From positions 25,130-89,129 of the forward strand of contig JAZDGA010000001.1 in the NCBI GenBank assembly GCA_043807405.1: a DNA stretch of 64,000 bases, read 5' to 3'. A program made the translations under genes and the position numbers. Positions 7,471 through 24,562 of this stretch are shown in pieces; position 1 is the first letter of the stretch; each line of letters begins with the position of its first letter. The notes beneath the pieces are model-generated. The model was not told where the DNA came from. It saw only the letters and a program-made list of their open reading frames with translations, and searched no databases. This stretch comes from Candidatus Vogelbacteria bacterium. Lineage in GTDB: Bacteria; Patescibacteriota; Minisyncoccia; Phycocordibacterales; JACOZG01.

Positions 7471-8142
7471 TCACATGGGTTCTTCAACCACCTTTCCATC
7501 CTCGCCCACCACCGGTTCTTTCCCGCGCTTCTCCACTTCGATCGCCGAGAGATCCACCGGCGCTTCTTCTTCAACTTCCTCTTTCGCCACCGAGATCCCG
7601 GCGACCACTTCATCTGGTTTGTGAGTCGTCGTCACGCCCGCCGGTAAAACTAAATCTTTAACTAAAATCTGACTCTCGAGCGTCGCCAGTGGAGTGACAT
7701 CCACCGTAATCCCGCGCGGTAAATCTTTTGGCAAAGCTTCGATTTCCAATTCATGAAGCACCTTGAGTAATATTCCGCCGAGTTCCTTCACCGCCGGCGC
7801 GAGACCGGTATACTCGATTGGAATTTTAATTTTAAGCATCACATCCTGCTCAATCACATAAAGATCAGCGTGAACTAGTTCACTATTAACCGGATGATAA
7901 GCCACTTCGTGAATCAAAACGCTTTTCTTCCCCGCAGGAGTAGTGAGTGTAATAATTGACGATTCGCCGGCTAATTTGAGTACTTTTTTGAAATCCGCGA
8001 GCGAGACAAAAAGCGAAGTCGGCTTGTCTTTATGACCATAGACCACGACAGGTAAACGCCCGGCACGGCGCTCTTTTTTCAACTCCTTGCCAAAAATTGT
8101 CCGTTCTTTCGCTTCAAGCGTAAACATCCCTCTATTATGCAC
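7471..8142 (-). CDS. rplY: 50S ribosomal protein L25/Ctc
   Basis: FTLEAKERTIFGKELKKERRAGRLPVVVYG and PIEYTG motifs. The track start at 8142 is GTG; the ATG at 8125-8127 (MFTLEA) is the more likely start. Confidence 0.85.
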   Translation of the reverse strand: MHNRGMFTLEAKERTIFGKELKKERRAGRLPVVVYGHKDKPTSLFVSLADFKKVLKLAGESSIITLTTPAGKKSVLIHEVAYHPVNSELVHADLYVIEQDVMLKIKIPIEYTGLAPAVKELGGILLKVLHELEIEALPKDLPRGITVDVTPLATLESQILVKDLVLPAGVTTTHKPDEVVAGISVAKEEVEEEAPVDLSAIEVEKRGKEPVVGEDGKVVEEPM

Positions 8143-8162
8143 AGATTTAAAAAAAAGAAAAG
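8122..8162 (-). repeat. copy 1 of a 41-nt direct repeat: native rplY -10 region, SD and start codon
   Basis: aaacatccctctattatgcacagatttaaaaaaaagaaaag matches 8682-8722 at 39/41 positions. Confidence 0.85.
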
Positions 8163-8681: not shown

Positions 8682-8722
8682 AAACATCCCTCTATTATGC
8701 ACAGTTTTGAAAAAAAGAAAAG
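8682..8722 (-). repeat. copy 2 of the 41-nt rplY 5'-end repeat, now placed as promoter/leader of the DUF4258-DUF2283 cassette
   Basis: aaacatccctctattatgcacagttttgaaaaaaagaaaag. The relic ATG TTT GTG TAG reading frame stops after 3 codons. Confidence 0.85.
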
Positions 8723-17773: not shown

Positions 17774-18241
17774 TTAAAATTCCGGATTAGACTTTAATTT
17801 GTAATCGAGTTTAGTGATTCGTCGAATATGCCGATCGGCGCCAGAAAACGGCGTCTCCAGCCAAAGTTTGATAATTTCCTTAGCGCGGTCAAGCTCAACC
17901 AACCGAGCACCGAGAGACAAAATATTGGAATTATTGTGTTCGCGCGACAATTTAATCACCTCACTCGGACCGCCATAAAAAACCGCCGCTCGAACATGTT
18001 TGAACCGATTGGCGCACATCGCTTCACCCTGACCCGAACCGCCAAAAATAATTCCGCGATGATTCTCCGGATCAGACGCCACCATCTTGGCCACAATATC
18101 AATAAAATCTGGATAATCATCCGCCGGCTCGAGCTTGAACGCGCCTTCATCATTTGTCTCATACCCCAAAGAATGCAAATAAACCTTAATCTTCTCCTTC
18201 ATTTCAAACCCCGCATGATCAGATCCGAGAAAGATTTTCAT
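17774..18241 (-). CDS. rpiB: ribose-5-phosphate isomerase B
   Basis: MKIFLGSDHAGFEMK and GGSGQGEAMCANR motifs. Confidence 0.9.
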   Translation of the reverse strand: MKIFLGSDHAGFEMKEKIKVYLHSLGYETNDEGAFKLEPADDYPDFIDIVAKMVASDPENHRGIIFGGSGQGEAMCANRFKHVRAAVFYGGPSEVIKLSREHNNSNILSLGARLVELDRAKEIIKLWLETPFSGADRHIRRITKLDYKLKSNPEF

Positions 18242-18456
18242 TATATAAAATCCTGTTTTGATAATCCGGCAGACTTGATAATTGACAACAGGGTACCTTT
18301 TGGTAAATCGCCAGAATGAAACGGCAGGGTTACTCTTTTTTGATTATCTTTATTATACAAAATATAGTGGCTTCCTGTTGTGTGATCCACTTCAAAACTA
18401 TGACTTTCGAGAATTGCCAACACTTTCTTGAAGGTAATACCGGGTAATTTAGGCAT
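18241..18456 (-). CDS. hicA: HicA-family mRNA interferase toxin
   Basis: A 71-aa YcfA/HicA pattern (KKVLAILESHSFEVDHTTGSHYIL...LPFHSGDLPKGTLLSIIKSAG). Its stop overlaps the rpiB ATG by 1 nt. Confidence 0.85.
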   Translation of the reverse strand: MPKLPGITFKKVLAILESHSFEVDHTTGSHYILYNKDNQKRVTLPFHSGDLPKGTLLSIIKSAGLSKQDFI

Positions 18457-18703
18457 GGCGAACTTTTACATTCGCGGGGAAAGAGATTAAACTCACAAAA
18501 TTTTCTTGGTCCGAAGGCACTGGTTCTTCATGTTTTCTCATTGATTCTACGTAACCGTGAATAGCGTCTACTGCCATCTCTCTAGCTTCGCTAAGGTCTT
18601 TCCCATAACTTATACACCCTGGTAAAGAAGGAACGATGGTAGTAAAACCACCTTCCGGCTCGGCTCTAAAAATAACATTATATTGAAGTATTTTATCTTG
18701 CAT
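18449..18703 (-). CDS. hicB: HicB-family antitoxin
   Basis: YNVIFRAEPEGGFTTIVPSLPGCISYGKDLSEAREMAVDAI (UPF0150/HicB fold). Start trimmed to MQDK (18701-18703). Overlaps hicA by 8 nt. Confidence 0.8.
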   Translation of the reverse strand: MQDKILQYNVIFRAEPEGGFTTIVPSLPGCISYGKDLSEAREMAVDAIHGYVESMRKHEEPVPSDQENFVSLISFPANVKVRHA

Positions 18704-18758
18704 ATAATCAGAATACCTTAAACTACATTTAAGTTCAACTAATATCCATTTTCCTCCC

Positions 18759-18792
18759 ACCCCGCATGATCCGCGCCGAGGAAAATTTACAT
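18759..18792 (-). pseudogene. relic duplicate of the rpiB 5' end (ATG TAA ATT TTC CTC GGC GCG GAT CAT GCG GGG)
   Basis: Matches the real rpiB start region (18208-18241) at 28/34 positions. It would encode M*IFLGADHAG versus MKIFLGSDHAG. Confidence 0.7.
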
Positions 18793-18855
18793 TTATTAAA
18801 ATTCAAATTGCTCCAATCTTAATCATGTGCTGGACCAAGGTGTAAGTGTGCCCTA

Positions 18856-19071
18856 TTACATACAACTGCTTAGTGGCTCAGTCTTGAATGTCCAATAATT
18901 ATCCGGGTTGGGAATTTGCAGATAACCTTGCTTAAAGGCTTGATATGCTGTCAAAATTTCAGTTTTCTCAGGAACTCCAAACATTTCACATCCCGTTACT
19001 ACTTTCCTAACAGGAATAAAAAAGAAAAGAATGATTAAAACCACAACGATCAGTAAAATAATTTTTTTCAT
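18856..19071 (-). CDS. small membrane-anchored protein (71 aa), hypothetical
   Basis: ORF track entry with an N-terminal TM helix (KKIILLIVVVLIILFFFIP). AT-rich. Confidence 0.45.
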   Translation of the reverse strand: MKKIILLIVVVLIILFFFIPVRKVVTGCEMFGVPEKTEILTAYQAFKQGYLQIPNPDNYWTFKTEPLSSCM

Positions 19072-19073
19072 AG

Positions 19074-20099
19074 TTAATTAATTGCCTTTCCAGTTTTGAT
19101 CACATGCTGAACGAGAGTGTGAGTGTACCCCATTTCGTTATCGTACCAGGCAAGAATTTTGATAAGATTTCCTCCCGCTACGCGAGTCATTTCTAAATCA
19201 GCGATAGATGCGTAAGGATCACCAATAATGTCTGACGACACCAAGGGCTCATCGGATGTTTTAAAGATTCCTTTCCACCGCGGATCTTGAGCTGCTCTCC
19301 GTAAAATATTATTGACTTCTTCTTTCGAAGTATTCTTTTTAGTGACAAATGTCAAATCAACGTAAGAACCAACAAGGGTAGGAACACGCACGGAAATTCC
19401 ATCAAAGAAGGGCACCCCTTTAACCGCCTGCGTTACTGATGTCGCGGCGCCGGTAGAAGATGGGACCAGATTATGAGCCGCCGCCCGACCTTCGCGCCAA
19501 TCTTTTTTATTCGGTCCATCCACCAGAGACTGACTAGCGGTATAACTATGAACAGTATCAAGAAGAGCTTTTTCGATATCAAGTGTCTCTTCAATAATGG
19601 CGACAATCGGACTCGCTGCATTCGTGGTGCAAGAGCCATTTGAAGTAATCTGGCAACGCCCAAGTTCTGATTCATTAATCCCCATCAGCACCGTCGCGCC
19701 GACAATCCCCGGCACGGGCTCGCCCTTGACCGGCGCCGAGACGACCACCTTGCGCGCACCAGCGTCGAGATGCGCTTTGGCTTTATCATAACTGGTGAAA
19801 AAACCGGTCGCCTCGACCACCACATCAATTTGCCAATCATGCCACGGCAAATGCGCCGGCTCCTTCTCCTGACACACGCGAATCTCATGACCGTTCACCA
19901 CCAACATTTTTTCCTTGACCGTCACTGGAGGCGCATAACGACCGTAAGCACTATCGTAGCGAAGCAGATAAGCAAGATTCTCTAAGTCGCCGAGATCATT
20001 GACCGCTACCACTTCCAACTCCGGTCGTTCAATCGCAATTTTCAAAAACGCCCGGCCAATTCTTCCTAACCCATTAATTCCAACGCGTATTTTTTTCAT
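19074..20099 (-). CDS. gap: type I glyceraldehyde-3-phosphate dehydrogenase
   Basis: INGLGRIGR, SNGSCTTN and WYDNEMGY motifs. Start set at MKKIRVG (20097-20099), with TTGTGT-17-TATAAT just upstream. Confidence 0.9.
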   Translation of the reverse strand: MKKIRVGINGLGRIGRAFLKIAIERPELEVVAVNDLGDLENLAYLLRYDSAYGRYAPPVTVKEKMLVVNGHEIRVCQEKEPAHLPWHDWQIDVVVEATGFFTSYDKAKAHLDAGARKVVVSAPVKGEPVPGIVGATVLMGINESELGRCQITSNGSCTTNAASPIVAIIEETLDIEKALLDTVHSYTASQSLVDGPNKKDWREGRAAAHNLVPSSTGAATSVTQAVKGVPFFDGISVRVPTLVGSYVDLTFVTKKNTSKEEVNNILRRAAQDPRWKGIFKTSDEPLVSSDIIGDPYASIADLEMTRVAGGNLIKILAWYDNEMGYTHTLVQHVIKTGKAIN

Positions 20100-22843: not shown

Positions 22844-22890
22844 ACCTCGATTCTACCCGCTAGGTTAGCATATCTAGGTTTAGATGTCAA
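22844..22890 (-). repeat. copy 1 of a ~47-nt promoter/5'-UTR direct repeat
   Basis: The minus strand reads TTGACAtctaaacctagatatgcTAACCTagcgggtagaatcgaggt. Its partner lies at 24514-24562. Confidence 0.75.
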
Positions 22891-22921: not shown

Positions 22922-24351
22922 GTAAGTTATCCACAAAAAGACCATACAAAATATGGGGTTTTTGCTAAAATAGAGGTCTAAATGCTAGGTCAATTAAGTC
23001 GAGAAATCAGACTCCAAATCAGTGTCACCAGGCTGAAGAAGGGCACGCAGAAACTGCGAGAGAAAGTGGTCGAACTCCTCCATTCAAACAAAGAAAAGGA
23101 TCGGCGGATCGCTGACTTGGAAGCTAAACTGATCGACAAAGAGTCTCAACGAAAAGAATTGCTCTCCTACCTCTACAAACCGGGCAAGAAAACTGGGGAA
23201 GCCAAACCGCGAGGCAAGCAACCGGGCGCGCCGGCTTACCATCGGCCAATTCCGCCGCCATCAGCCGTGACCCAAGAACACAGTTATGTCTTGAAAATTT
23301 GCCCCATCTGTGAAAAAGAAGTCGGGGGCGTAGTTGATACCGTGGTCAAGTACACCGAAGACATCGCCCTGAAGCCACGACCAATCGTCACCAAACATAC
23401 GATTACCCGTCACTGGTGCGCGCGCTGCGAGACTTATGTCAAATCAAAAAACATTCCACCGATCACTCGGATTGGTATCAAGACCATGGGTTATGTTCTC
23501 TACGCTCGATACCGTCTCCGTTTGCCGTTGGGCAAGATCAAAGAGAGTCTGCTGGACCTCTATGACTTCAAACTCTCGGAAGGTGAAATCGTGGCGACCT
23601 TGAAGGACGCCGAGACCCTTTTCGGCAAAGATTATGAAGCGATTATCGCACTCATCCAAGCCGCCACCACTGTCTACGCCGATGAAACTGGTTGGCGAAT
23701 GGATGGAAACAACTGGTGGCTGTGGGTGTTCGTCACCACGACCGGCACCCAATATTTGATTGAAGACAGTCGAGGCAAGGGCGGGCCTGAACGAGCGTTG
23801 GGAAACAAAGCTGATCGCGTGATCATTTCCGACGGCTATGCCGCTTACCAAAATCTAGCGGGCGACAAACAACAATGCTGGGTGCATCTATTGCGAGTAG
23901 CCAAACTTCAGTCGCTCTCGTTGTATCAGGATTTGGTTGTTCTCTACAAGAAACTGTTACTCGAATTAGAGAAACCACTCGGGCAACGAGACAAAGAAAA
24001 GTTAAAAAAAGAATTGGCTGATTTGATTGTTAAATCATACTTGGAACCGACGGTGGGAAAAGTCCGGGAGAGAATGAAGCGTCACCAAGCGGTACTTTTT
24101 ACCTGTCTTGATTATGAAAGTGTTCGGCCCGAGAACAATACCGCCGAACGAGCGATCCGACCACAAGTCGTGATGCGTAAAATCTTCGGCGGATCGCGAT
24201 CGTTGGCGGGGGCTCAAGCTCATCAAGTCAACTCGTCAGTGTTGGAAACGATGCGTCAACGGAACCCCGAAGCTAATTTCTTCGATGTCATTTTACCCTT
24301 GCTGGAGAAACGTCGCTCGGAGGTGTGAGCTGATACTTTTTTGTGATCCAC
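22922..24351 (+). mobile_element. IS66-family insertion sequence, single-ORF type; ends approximate
   Basis: Imperfect terminal inverted repeats GTAAGTTATCCACAAAAAG (22922-22940) and CTTTTTTGTGATCCAC (24336-24351) flank an IS66-type transposase. No clear target duplication could be identified. Confidence 0.7.
22982..24328 (+). CDS. IS66-family DDE transposase
   Basis: N-terminal coiled coil, zinc-finger CPICEKEV...CARCETYV, YADETGWRMDGNNWWLWVF, SDGYAAYQNL, QQCWVHLLR and NNTAERAIRPQVVMRKIFGGSRS. Confidence 0.9.
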   Translation: MLGQLSREIRLQISVTRLKKGTQKLREKVVELLHSNKEKDRRIADLEAKLIDKESQRKELLSYLYKPGKKTGEAKPRGKQPGAPAYHRPIPPPSAVTQEHSYVLKICPICEKEVGGVVDTVVKYTEDIALKPRPIVTKHTITRHWCARCETYVKSKNIPPITRIGIKTMGYVLYARYRLRLPLGKIKESLLDLYDFKLSEGEIVATLKDAETLFGKDYEAIIALIQAATTVYADETGWRMDGNNWWLWVFVTTTGTQYLIEDSRGKGGPERALGNKADRVIISDGYAAYQNLAGDKQQCWVHLLRVAKLQSLSLYQDLVVLYKKLLLELEKPLGQRDKEKLKKELADLIVKSYLEPTVGKVRERMKRHQAVLFTCLDYESVRPENNTAERAIRPQVVMRKIFGGSRSLAGAQAHQVNSSVLETMRQRNPEANFFDVILPLLEKRRSEV

Positions 24352-24513: not shown

Positions 24514-24562
24514 ACCTCACGATTCTGCCCACTAGGTTAGCATATCTAGGTTTAGAAGTCAA
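24514..24562 (-). repeat. copy 2 of the ~47-nt promoter/5'-UTR direct repeat
   Basis: The minus strand reads TTGACTtctaaacctagatatgcTAACCTagtgggcagaatcgtgaggt. Confidence 0.75.

Follow-up and report, generated by a model that had tools for sequence, protein, structure and literature searches.

Prophage e14 and phage 21 bring a substitute gene end into the icd gene of E. coli, which differs from the resident end mostly at synonymous positions; a pseudo-end is left behind and the target gene stays intact. Each of the two codes for an integrase and integrates at a defined att core in the 3' end of icd. Insertion with long target duplication of restriction-modification (RM) genes was reportedly described by Nobusato et al. 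2000 (as cited in Furuta, Abe and Kobayashi 2010). For RM gene complexes, the mechanism of such insertions is not established (Furuta, Abe and Kobayashi 2010, PMC2853133), and most of the published cases come from naturally competent species (PMC2853133). C-terminal displacement is known from the rhs, cdiA and T6SS effector loci (Jackson et al. 2009, PMC2935791; Kirchberger et al. 2017, PMC5361080), for which both homology-facilitated illegitimate recombination (HFIR) and circular intermediates have been proposed as mechanisms (PMC2935791, PMC5361080).

The locus described here is located in a window of 64,000 nucleotides, by which we mean the whole stretch of DNA that was analyzed, from the genome of an ultra-small bacterium of the CPR (G000; Paceibacteria-type, 848 kb, 33 contigs, 98%-complete). 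In this window, a hicB-hicA toxin-antitoxin (TA) pair is bracketed by the start of rpiB and a degraded copy of the same start. Comparisons with related genomes make it fairly probable that a laterally acquired hicBA unit with its own copy of the rpiB start entered the resident rpiB start, and that it has spread by homologous recombination; how the repeat arose is something that we infer.

The hicB-hicA unit at the start of rpiB

The genes at the locus are all on the minus strand, in the order gap, a 71-aa membrane ORF, hicB, hicA, rpiB, rpe and the gene for the N-terminal transketolase subunit (Table 1). No match to RpiA (PF06026) was obtained in the G000 genome, in which rpiB is the sole ribose-5-phosphate isomerase gene found. 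The GC content of the hicBA cassette is 36.9%, as compared to 45.3% for rpiB, 46% for the genome and 45-49% for the neighbors. The membrane ORF had no Pfam match and looks like a second inserted cargo.

Table 1. Features of the gap-rpiB region in G000, with positions in the window.
Feature	Positions	Strand	Evidence or remark
rpiB, live	17774-18241	minus	PF02502, E=1.8e-40
44-nt direct repeat, downstream (live) copy	18208-18251	minus	rpiB +1..+34 plus 10 nt of hicA 3' end; direct-repeat search
hicA, toxin gene, 71 aa	18241-18456	minus	PF07927, positions 1-58 of 58, E=1.4e-16
hicB, antitoxin gene, 84 aa	18449-18703	minus	PF15919, E=2.2e-9
Cassette left end, non-coding spacer	18704-18753	minus	Homologous to L069/L070 spacer (alignment)
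rpiB 5' end relic (+1..+39)	18754-18792	minus	Codon-2 stop, TT>GG, 14-nt deletion at 3' edge
Fossil gap-rpiB intergenic spacer ATTTTAATAA	18793-18802	minus	Intact junction in G004 reads TTTTAATAA
gap (GAPDH) 3' end relic, encoding ...GHTYTLVQHMIKIGAI and stop	18803-18861	minus	Smith-Waterman vs G004/G001 gap ends
71-aa membrane ORF, 33.8% GC	18856-19071	minus	ORF list; between live gap end and gap relic
gap (GAPDH), live	19074-20093	minus	PF00044 and PF02800

The pair is predicted to be a HicAB type II TA system, as judged from the HicA domain and the upstream, overlapping hicB gene. The overlap between the two genes is 8 nt (18449-18456). The conserved Gly-Ser-His of HicA is present as TGSHY, and HicB consists of a short N-terminal HicB-like domain only, with no recognizable DNA-binding domain. 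The start of hicB was placed at the ATG at 18703, in agreement with the starts of the aligned homologues (L069, L070 and L071); the GTG start at 18760 in the ORF list represents an in-frame upstream extension and was rejected. The dN/dS ratios between G000 and the homologous cassette L069, described below, were 0.05 for hicB and 0.07 for hicA, with dS of at least 1, and both genes appear to be under strong purifying selection.

The TAA of hicA and the ATG of rpiB have one base in common (TAATG), and an AGGA motif is located inside hicA, 11 nt before the rpiB ATG. Both the start codon of rpiB and the AGGA motif lie on the cassette side of the insertion. Transcription of rpiB is presumably from the gap operon, the cassette, or both. 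The cassette spacer holds a weak candidate promoter, TTGAAC-17 nt-TATTCT (8/12 in a consensus scan, below the threshold), for which a promoter role may be suggested. The only promoter-scan match upstream of rpiB, TTGTCA-16-GATTAT inside hicA, was within chance expectation.

The first-pass annotation had described a decayed rpiB start upstream of hicB, with 28/34 identity to the live one, and the sequence bears this out. The relic (18759-18792) reads ATG TAA ATT TTC CTC GGC GCG where the live start (18208-18241) reads ATG AAA ATC TTT CTC GGA TCT, and both continue with GAT CAT GCG GGG T. As had been claimed, three of the six differences are synonymous third-position changes, two account for Ser to Ala and one creates the stop. 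A direct-repeat search lengthened the repeat to 44 nt (18208-18251 and 18759-18802; 35/44 identical, at a spacing of 551), and it brackets a 551-bp unit with an intact hicB-hicA pair. The match also held against the genome background: when the live 34-mer was compared with both strands of the 848-kb genome (1.69 million positions), the relic was the single best-matching site, ahead of a runner-up at 23/34. The binomial chance of at least 28/34 is 4e-12 per position. Alignment to younger copies corrected the extent of the relic, which was judged to have reached originally to about +51. Relative to these copies, the G000 relic has decayed by the stop at codon 2, TT>GG at +35/36 and a deletion of 14 nt after +39.

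Directly upstream of the rpiB relic is a relic of the 3' end of gap, with a Smith-Waterman score of 59 against the gap ends of two relatives (G004/G001), as compared to a shuffle maximum of 28. Since the gap relic is followed by ATTTTAATAA (cf. TTTTAATAA in G004) and then by the rpiB relic, positions 18754-18861 are best read as a fossil of the original junction between the gap stop and the rpiB start. This fossil is flanked by the 71-aa ORF and the new gap end on one side, and by hicBA and the new rpiB start on the other. Two gap 3' relics were observed in another relative, G027, of which one is joined to part of a membrane-protein gene.

Empty sites, other cargos and younger copies in relatives

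RpiB was present in 61/61 relatives searched. The distance from the gap stop to the rpiB ATG is about 5-15 nt in many genera, including 7 nt in G030 and 9 nt in G004. No upstream copy of the rpiB start was found at the empty sites of G030, G004 and many other genera, where the best upstream matches were 15-20 of 36. The first-pass annotation had suggested looking for a presence/absence polymorphism of hicAB at rpiB, and this was observed: G030 and G004 are without the cassette, and G029, L069 and L070 carry the same cassette together with the relic. Relatives without hicAB carry a relic only where an NYN or IS200-like cargo occupies the same spot.

Two copies of the rpiB start on one contig and strand were found in 4/31 genomes of the family (G000 and G002 of genus g1, G027 and G022 of genus g6) and in none of about 390 other genomes of the order (pattern search, 401-genome census). 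The occurrence of rpiB relics is limited to two genera of the family, g1 and g6. In G002 and G027, an NYN-domain gene is located between the relic and the live rpiB start; in G022, this place is taken by an IS200-like Y1 transposase homologue on the opposite strand. In all three genomes, the ATG of the relic shares bases with the stop of the preceding gene (ATGA), which places the relic at the native position of the rpiB start. The ends of the relics vary with the cargo, at about +35 to +38 (NYN in G002/G027, IS200-like in G022). A GIY-YIG gene and a GC hairpin abut the rpiB ATG in G005 and G001, with no relic. As several cargo types are found at the same spot in relatives, the gap-rpiB junction is a hotspot that has been struck repeatedly.

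Two further comparisons were set aside. The NYN cassettes of G002 and G027 showed no sharp identity boundary (75% in the cassette and 55-87% in the flanks) and were uninformative. The idea that rpiB of G000, G002 and G005 is a xenologue derived from g6 was dropped; the RpiB and Rpe trees make G001 and G004 the outliers.

The only family member with a close HicA (79% identity) is G029, in which the gene likewise abuts rpiB. A scan of metagenomes identified two more copies of the cassette, L069 and L070, of which L069 is 99.8% identical to G029 over 1,408 aligned bases. The layout in L069 and L070 is the gap stop, 5-12 nt, the rpiB-start relic, a spacer of ~50 nt, hicB, hicA and the live rpiB, with a spacing of 566 nt, and the hicA stop overlaps the ATGA of the live rpiB in both. 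The relic of these young copies, located just after the gap stop, is about 51 nt long (to about +51) and nearly intact, with a relic/live identity of 35/36 in L069 and 33/36 in L070. The alignment showed that the G000 cassette is homologous to L069/L070 along its entire length, the non-coding spacer included. By this homology, the first ~51 nt of the live rpiB in G000 (18191-18241) would belong to the incoming cassette unit. The divergence of this segment from the sister alleles in G002 and G005, tested for an excess over the rest of rpiB, was not significant (P=0.24, at low power), and positions 1-21 gave P=0.05-0.09.

The L069 and L070 loci showed a distinct identity profile. The identity was 94.7% in the 3' part of gap, 79.3% in the spacer and relic positions 1-24, 98.2% (11 mismatches in 619 nt) from relic position +25 through the cassette to position +77 of the live rpiB, 83.5% from rpiB +78 to its end, and 94.4% in rpe. 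The 5' half of the L070 relic is thus outside the shared tract. Positions 1-51 of the live L070 copy are the same as those of L069 at 50/51 positions and differ from L070's own relic at 5/51, which suggests that the live start arrived in L070 with the cassette. The profile as a whole suggests that the cassette moved horizontally along with a replacement 5' end of rpiB. In the simplest reading, a cassette-bearing donor of the L069 type would have recombined with a resident holding a different rpiB allele, with crossovers within the relic and near rpiB position +77, and the first ~24 nt of the resident would have stayed as the 5' half of the L070 relic. It would be less parsimonious to assume that two genomes with the cassette already in place exchanged a tract and that both flanks were replaced separately.

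Six relic/live pairs were compared, in which 15/21 differences are at third codon positions (P=4e-4 against an expectation of one third; P=0.039, which is marginal, against one half, as expected under a model where the live copy also drifts synonymously). At the codon level, 13 differences are synonymous and 5 are non-synonymous. The excess of third-position and synonymous differences would fit copies that diverged as coding alleles.

The architecture is not limited to rpiB. The first-pass annotation had pointed to rplY as a second case of a TA cassette precisely at the start of a housekeeping gene, flanked by a copy of that start, and the relatives and the genome-wide repeats support the view that this arrangement is recurrent. 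The rplY repeat in the window is 41 nt long and 39/41 identical. In the locus L103, a related hicBA pair is located between the start of the live trmD (PF01746) and a 75-nt relic of the trmD start (72/75), in the orientation opposite to trmD. The cassettes at rpiB, trmD and other targets have no shared sequence outside of the hicB and hicA genes, and no transposon-like ends.

In G000, we identified 75 direct-repeat pairs (at least 30 nt and at least 78% identity) at spacings of 150-3000 nt, as compared to 0 at a control spacing of ~20 kb. With the internal repeats of large repetitive proteins set aside, 37 pairs are at a spacing of 400-1800 nt. The repeats are 30 to about 100 nt long, they flank dozens of further cassettes in the genome, and many of them surround TA-type cargos. 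The repeat-flanked cargos comprise ParE, two PemK/MazF, DUF433, DUF2283, an aspartyl protease paired with DUF5678 and seven PaaX/Cas2-like genes; further repeats bracket NYN (contig C8) and IS200-like (contig C27) cargos, both recognized from their sequences only. Some repeats coincide with gene ends, and the clearest of these, on contig C16, reads as a 37-nt copy of the last codons and the stop of a DNA polymerase I-like ORF. Some repeats around other hicBA pairs were not counted as evidence: the apparent one in L089 is just the common T-arm of two complete tRNA genes (Ile and Val), and those of 83-195 nt around distant hicBA pairs in L134-L136 and L144 look like dispersed intergenic repeats.

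Origin and spread of the unit

No recombinase was found in any insert, and the rpiB insert holds only hicB and hicA. The G000 genome encodes ComEC, DprA, RecA and three serine recombinases; a search for tyrosine recombinases (PF00589) gave no match in this 98%-complete genome. We propose that the ancestral locus consisted of gap, a spacer of ~9 nt and rpiB, as in G004 and G030, and that a laterally acquired unit was inserted within the first ~50 nt of rpiB. Apart from hicB and hicA, this unit would have carried a short spacer at its 5' side and a copy of the rpiB start, from the ribosome-binding region and start codon through the first ~17 codons. The present rpiB would then begin with the cassette-side 5' end and abut hicA translationally, and the earlier 5' end would have stayed upstream as a non-functional relic, which then decayed.

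The younger copies L069 and L070 suggest how the unit may be disseminated. DNA uptake, for which natural transformation is the presumed route in this lineage, would be followed by ordinary homologous recombination, in which the relic provides a short left homology arm and the body of rpiB the right one. By such a double crossover, the cassette could enter a related naive genome with no recombinase of its own, and the live gene start would then be donor DNA. The L069/L070 tract supports spread by homologous recombination of this kind. The first repeat most likely arose by HFIR: the conserved GAYCAYGCGGGGTTTGA block and downstream rpiB would have anchored one end, and an illegitimate joint within the start of the resident gene would have formed at the other. 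As the spacer measures no more than 5-12 nt and the gene upstream is presumably required, the only tolerated junctions near the anchor would lie in the resident copy of the gene start and leave a short relic; in a genome with spacers of 5-10 nt, hardly any other DNA close to the anchor could be dispensed with. The alternative for this first event is a single crossover with a circular intermediate, as put forward for Rhs tips. Long relics would be lost through recombination between the repeats, which would explain the range of 30-100 nt.

The near-identity of the repeat copies in L069 (35/36) also fits a duplication in situ at the first insertion. This alternative, which we regard as unlikely though worth serious attention, states that a break-and-repair event or a staggered cut inserted bare hicBA and copied ~40-50 nt of the resident start to both sides, with the differences in G000 as later decay. 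It agrees with the published pattern for RM genes (PMC2853133) and with the near-identity of the young copies in general (35/36 in L069, 72/75 in L103 and 39/41 in the rplY repeat), and it could account for the first copy. However, the live positions 1-51 in L070 resemble L069 rather than L070's own relic, and relic/live differences are enriched at synonymous sites. In addition, a fixed stagger would not be expected to give repeats of 30 to about 100 nt genome-wide, or of +35 to +51 at rpiB alone.

We consider it quite improbable that the unit entered by a Campbell-type single crossover, in which a circle with the cargo and one rpiB 5' segment would have been excised via the repeats in an earlier host and would then have recombined with the rpiB start of the resident. 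A circle would yield exactly the observed architecture and explain why the same cargo is at the same site in two genera; RecA is present in G000, and the model has been put forward for the displacement of Rhs tips (PMC2935791). However, 35-51 nt of homology come close to the minimum for RecA, and the L069/L070 tract extends past the repeat to rpiB +52..+77 and ends inside the relic, for which a linear double crossover is a better fit.

Site-specific integration in trans by a serine recombinase or a phage enzyme, with the rpiB start as attB and a cassette attP mimicking it, is very improbable. The three cargo types that reuse the site and the three serine recombinase genes in G000 would be in line with such a process, and phage 21 and e14 restore icd in a comparable manner. 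Against this, no insert contains a recombinase and G000 has no tyrosine recombinase, serine recombinases neither need nor leave long identical repeats, related hicBA cassettes are located at unrelated targets (trmD and others) with no common end sequences, and the ends of the relics differ among cargos. Finally, the view that the upstream copy is a chance match, or a functional leader or decoy element rather than a scar, can be practically dismissed: the retained ATG followed by TAA (start-stop) about 55 nt before hicB could affect translation, but chance is excluded by the genome-wide match statistics, and the relic is collinear with the fossil gap end and spacer, decaying (stop, deletion) relative to the younger copies and missing from empty sites.

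Entry of a laterally acquired unit followed by homologous recombination, the reading that we favor, has consequences for the host gene. The identical core of the G000 repeat is 13 nt, and recombination within it would probably give a dead rpiB. As the relic start carries a stop codon, the cassette looks locked in, or fixed, in G000. If this is true, a cassette with a decayed relic could no longer be lost via the repeats without killing the gene, which would represent an addiction by genetic entanglement that is separate from the toxin. The locus also shows that an essential gene can end up with a start codon and ribosome-binding region provided by such a cassette, which bears on the persistence of TA modules in minimal genomes.

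The spread of chromosomal TA modules without transposases or integrases is poorly understood, and this locus and its younger relatives give a concrete route. By carrying a short copy of a conserved gene terminus, the cassette would be enabled to recombine homologously into naive genomes, where a recognizable scar remains. It is possible, although we propose it only tentatively, that the CPR have a general integrase-free entry route of this type, in which small selfish cassettes (TA pairs, NYN, IS200-like and PaaX/Cas2-like genes) are coupled to 30-100 nt of a conserved gene terminus as a portable homology arm in natural transformation; after relic decay, the cassette would supply the ribosome-binding site, start and possibly promoter of an essential gene and become addictive by entanglement. 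For annotation, the route would explain why small AT-rich cassettes in CPR genomes are accompanied by short "pseudo-starts" and "pseudo-ends", and it carries the warning that the 5' or 3' end of a housekeeping gene may differ in history from the remaining gene.

Relation to described systems

DNA transposons and IS elements, with their conserved inverted-repeat ends, transposase and short target duplication of fixed length, differ from the rpiB unit in that no common ends were found at rpiB, trmD and the other targets and that the repeats range from 30 to about 100 nt. As for integron gene cassettes, which have an attC site and depend on an IntI integrase platform, no tyrosine recombinase was found, and the repeat is the start of a coding gene and not a palindromic attC. 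The inserts also differ from integrase elements of the e14/phage 21 type: there is no integrase or other recombinase in the insert and no PF00589 match in G000, only 551 bp are inserted, the 5' end rather than the 3' end is replaced, and the relic ends differ among cargos.

As in other HicAB type II systems, a hicB-like antitoxin gene is located upstream of hicA and overlaps it, and both genes show purifying selection. The differences are that HicB is short here (84 aa), with no recognizable DNA-binding domain, and that the toxin stop overlaps the start of an essential gene.

We group the rpiB phenomenon with two described processes, insertion with long target duplication and terminus displacement. 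It shares with the former (PMC2853133) a small selfish unit of the addiction type with no mobility gene, and direct repeats of more than 30 bp that often overlap a gene end, are unique in the genome and have a single counterpart at a relative's empty site. The repeats at rpiB are 44 nt in G000 and about 51 nt in L069/L070, the empty sites in G030 and G004 consist of gap, 7-9 nt and rpiB, and the insert contains hicB and hicA with no mobility gene, flanked by a non-dispersed repeat that is unique in the genome. With respect to a resident origin of both repeat copies, the live copy in L070 is donor-like and unlike the relic, whereas the L069 copies are near-identical. The cargo here is a type II TA pair (NYN or IS200-like at the same site) rather than RM genes, the repeated sequence comes from an essential metabolic gene and comprises its 5' coding end with the start codon, and there is direct evidence that the unit moved between lineages with one repeat copy, so that the copies can stem from different alleles.

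As in C-terminal displacement at rhs-type loci, a laterally acquired gene end with cargo displaces the incumbent end, and the orphan end remains adjacent with a conserved core of variable length that makes up direct repeats. The L069/L070 identity profile shows this pattern of terminus displacement, and the gap 3' relics in G000 and G027 give the same picture. The differences are that the N-terminal end is displaced at rpiB, which is a housekeeping gene and not a polymorphic toxin, and that the replaced end encodes the same protein sequence, with the diversity located in the cargo and not in the tip. The rpiB case differs from the known systems in the TA or other small selfish cargo, in the 5' coding end of an essential gene as the target, and in the direct evidence for recombinational transfer.

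Probable displacement at the gap 3' end

A low-GC membrane ORF of 71 aa separates the live gap (GAPDH) end from a decayed copy of that 3' end, a relic followed by a fossil spacer (see table below). This arrangement looks like a second displacement event in the source genome, in which an incoming gene end with its cargo replaced the resident end. Two gap 3' relics in succession were observed in the gap-rpiB interval of G027, a genome of genus g6 (locus L033), one of which is part of a chimeric 74-aa ORF that joins a membrane-protein gene's 5' part to the gap tail at W|YDNE. These two relics, one within a chimeric ORF, point to repeated displacement with microhomology-type joints in G027.

Exchange and other elements at rpiB

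In trees of the family genomes (L001-L030), RpiB of G001 and G004, which belong to genus g1 like the source genome G000, clusters with genus g13 and with genomes of other families in the order, whereas their Rpe clusters with the remaining g1. For G002, also of g1, RpiB is 93% identical to that of G000, as compared to 71-74% for gap and rpe. Thus, based on the disagreement between the groupings and the closer RpiB of G002, we conclude that whole-gene exchange of rpiB is frequent at the gap-rpiB locus.

Other elements occupy the site in two species of the genus. Immediately upstream of rpiB in G001 (L024) and in G005, a sister of G000 (L003), lies a gene for a GIY-YIG nuclease (86-90 aa), followed by a 50-nt GC-rich palindromic element, which touches the rpiB ATG and is identical in both. 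No rpiB relic was found at these two loci.

Repeat-bracketed cassettes and recombination genes

A hicBA pair related to that at rpiB was observed in a metagenome contig (L103), flanked by the live trmD 5' end and a 75-nt relic of the same end (72/75); trmD and the cassette have opposite orientations. The direct repeat at rplY, cited in the first-pass annotation, was recovered independently by a genome-wide repeat scan. Of the two ORFs between its copies, one matches DUF2283 weakly, just under the Pfam cut-off, and the second had no match in the Pfam search.

Features by position
Feature	Location	Strand
gap 3'-end relic, then fossil spacer	window 18803-18861	minus
71-aa ORF	window 18856-19071	
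rplY repeat, 41 nt (39/41), spacing 560	window 8122-8162 and 8682-8722	
43-nt direct repeat (40/43), spacing 1672 nt	window 22848-22890 and 24520-24562	
448-aa ORF inside 43-nt repeat pair	window 22982-24328	plus
hicBA at trmD (OBEQ010238389.1)	L103:2403-3240	
PaaX/Cas2-like paralogues (contigs of G000)	C1:89505-90187; C1:98895-99575; C18:79400-80090; C19:51369-52015; C20:7958-8635; C21:20540-21239; C26:61707-62389	

The G000 genome (98% complete) encodes three serine recombinases as well as ComEC, DprA and RecA. The whole genome contains zero matches to the tyrosine recombinase domain (PF00589), and therefore no XerC/D-type enzyme either.

Seven paralogous proteins of ~185-199 aa are encoded in G000, all outside the window, and a domain scan of one identified the PaaX central Cas2-like domain (PF20803). 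Each of the seven is bracketed by 30-50-nt direct repeats, spaced 612-666 nt apart, with a CGATCGT / CGGTCGT core in common. They appear to be small insertions that make up a family of their own, with a shared core motif.
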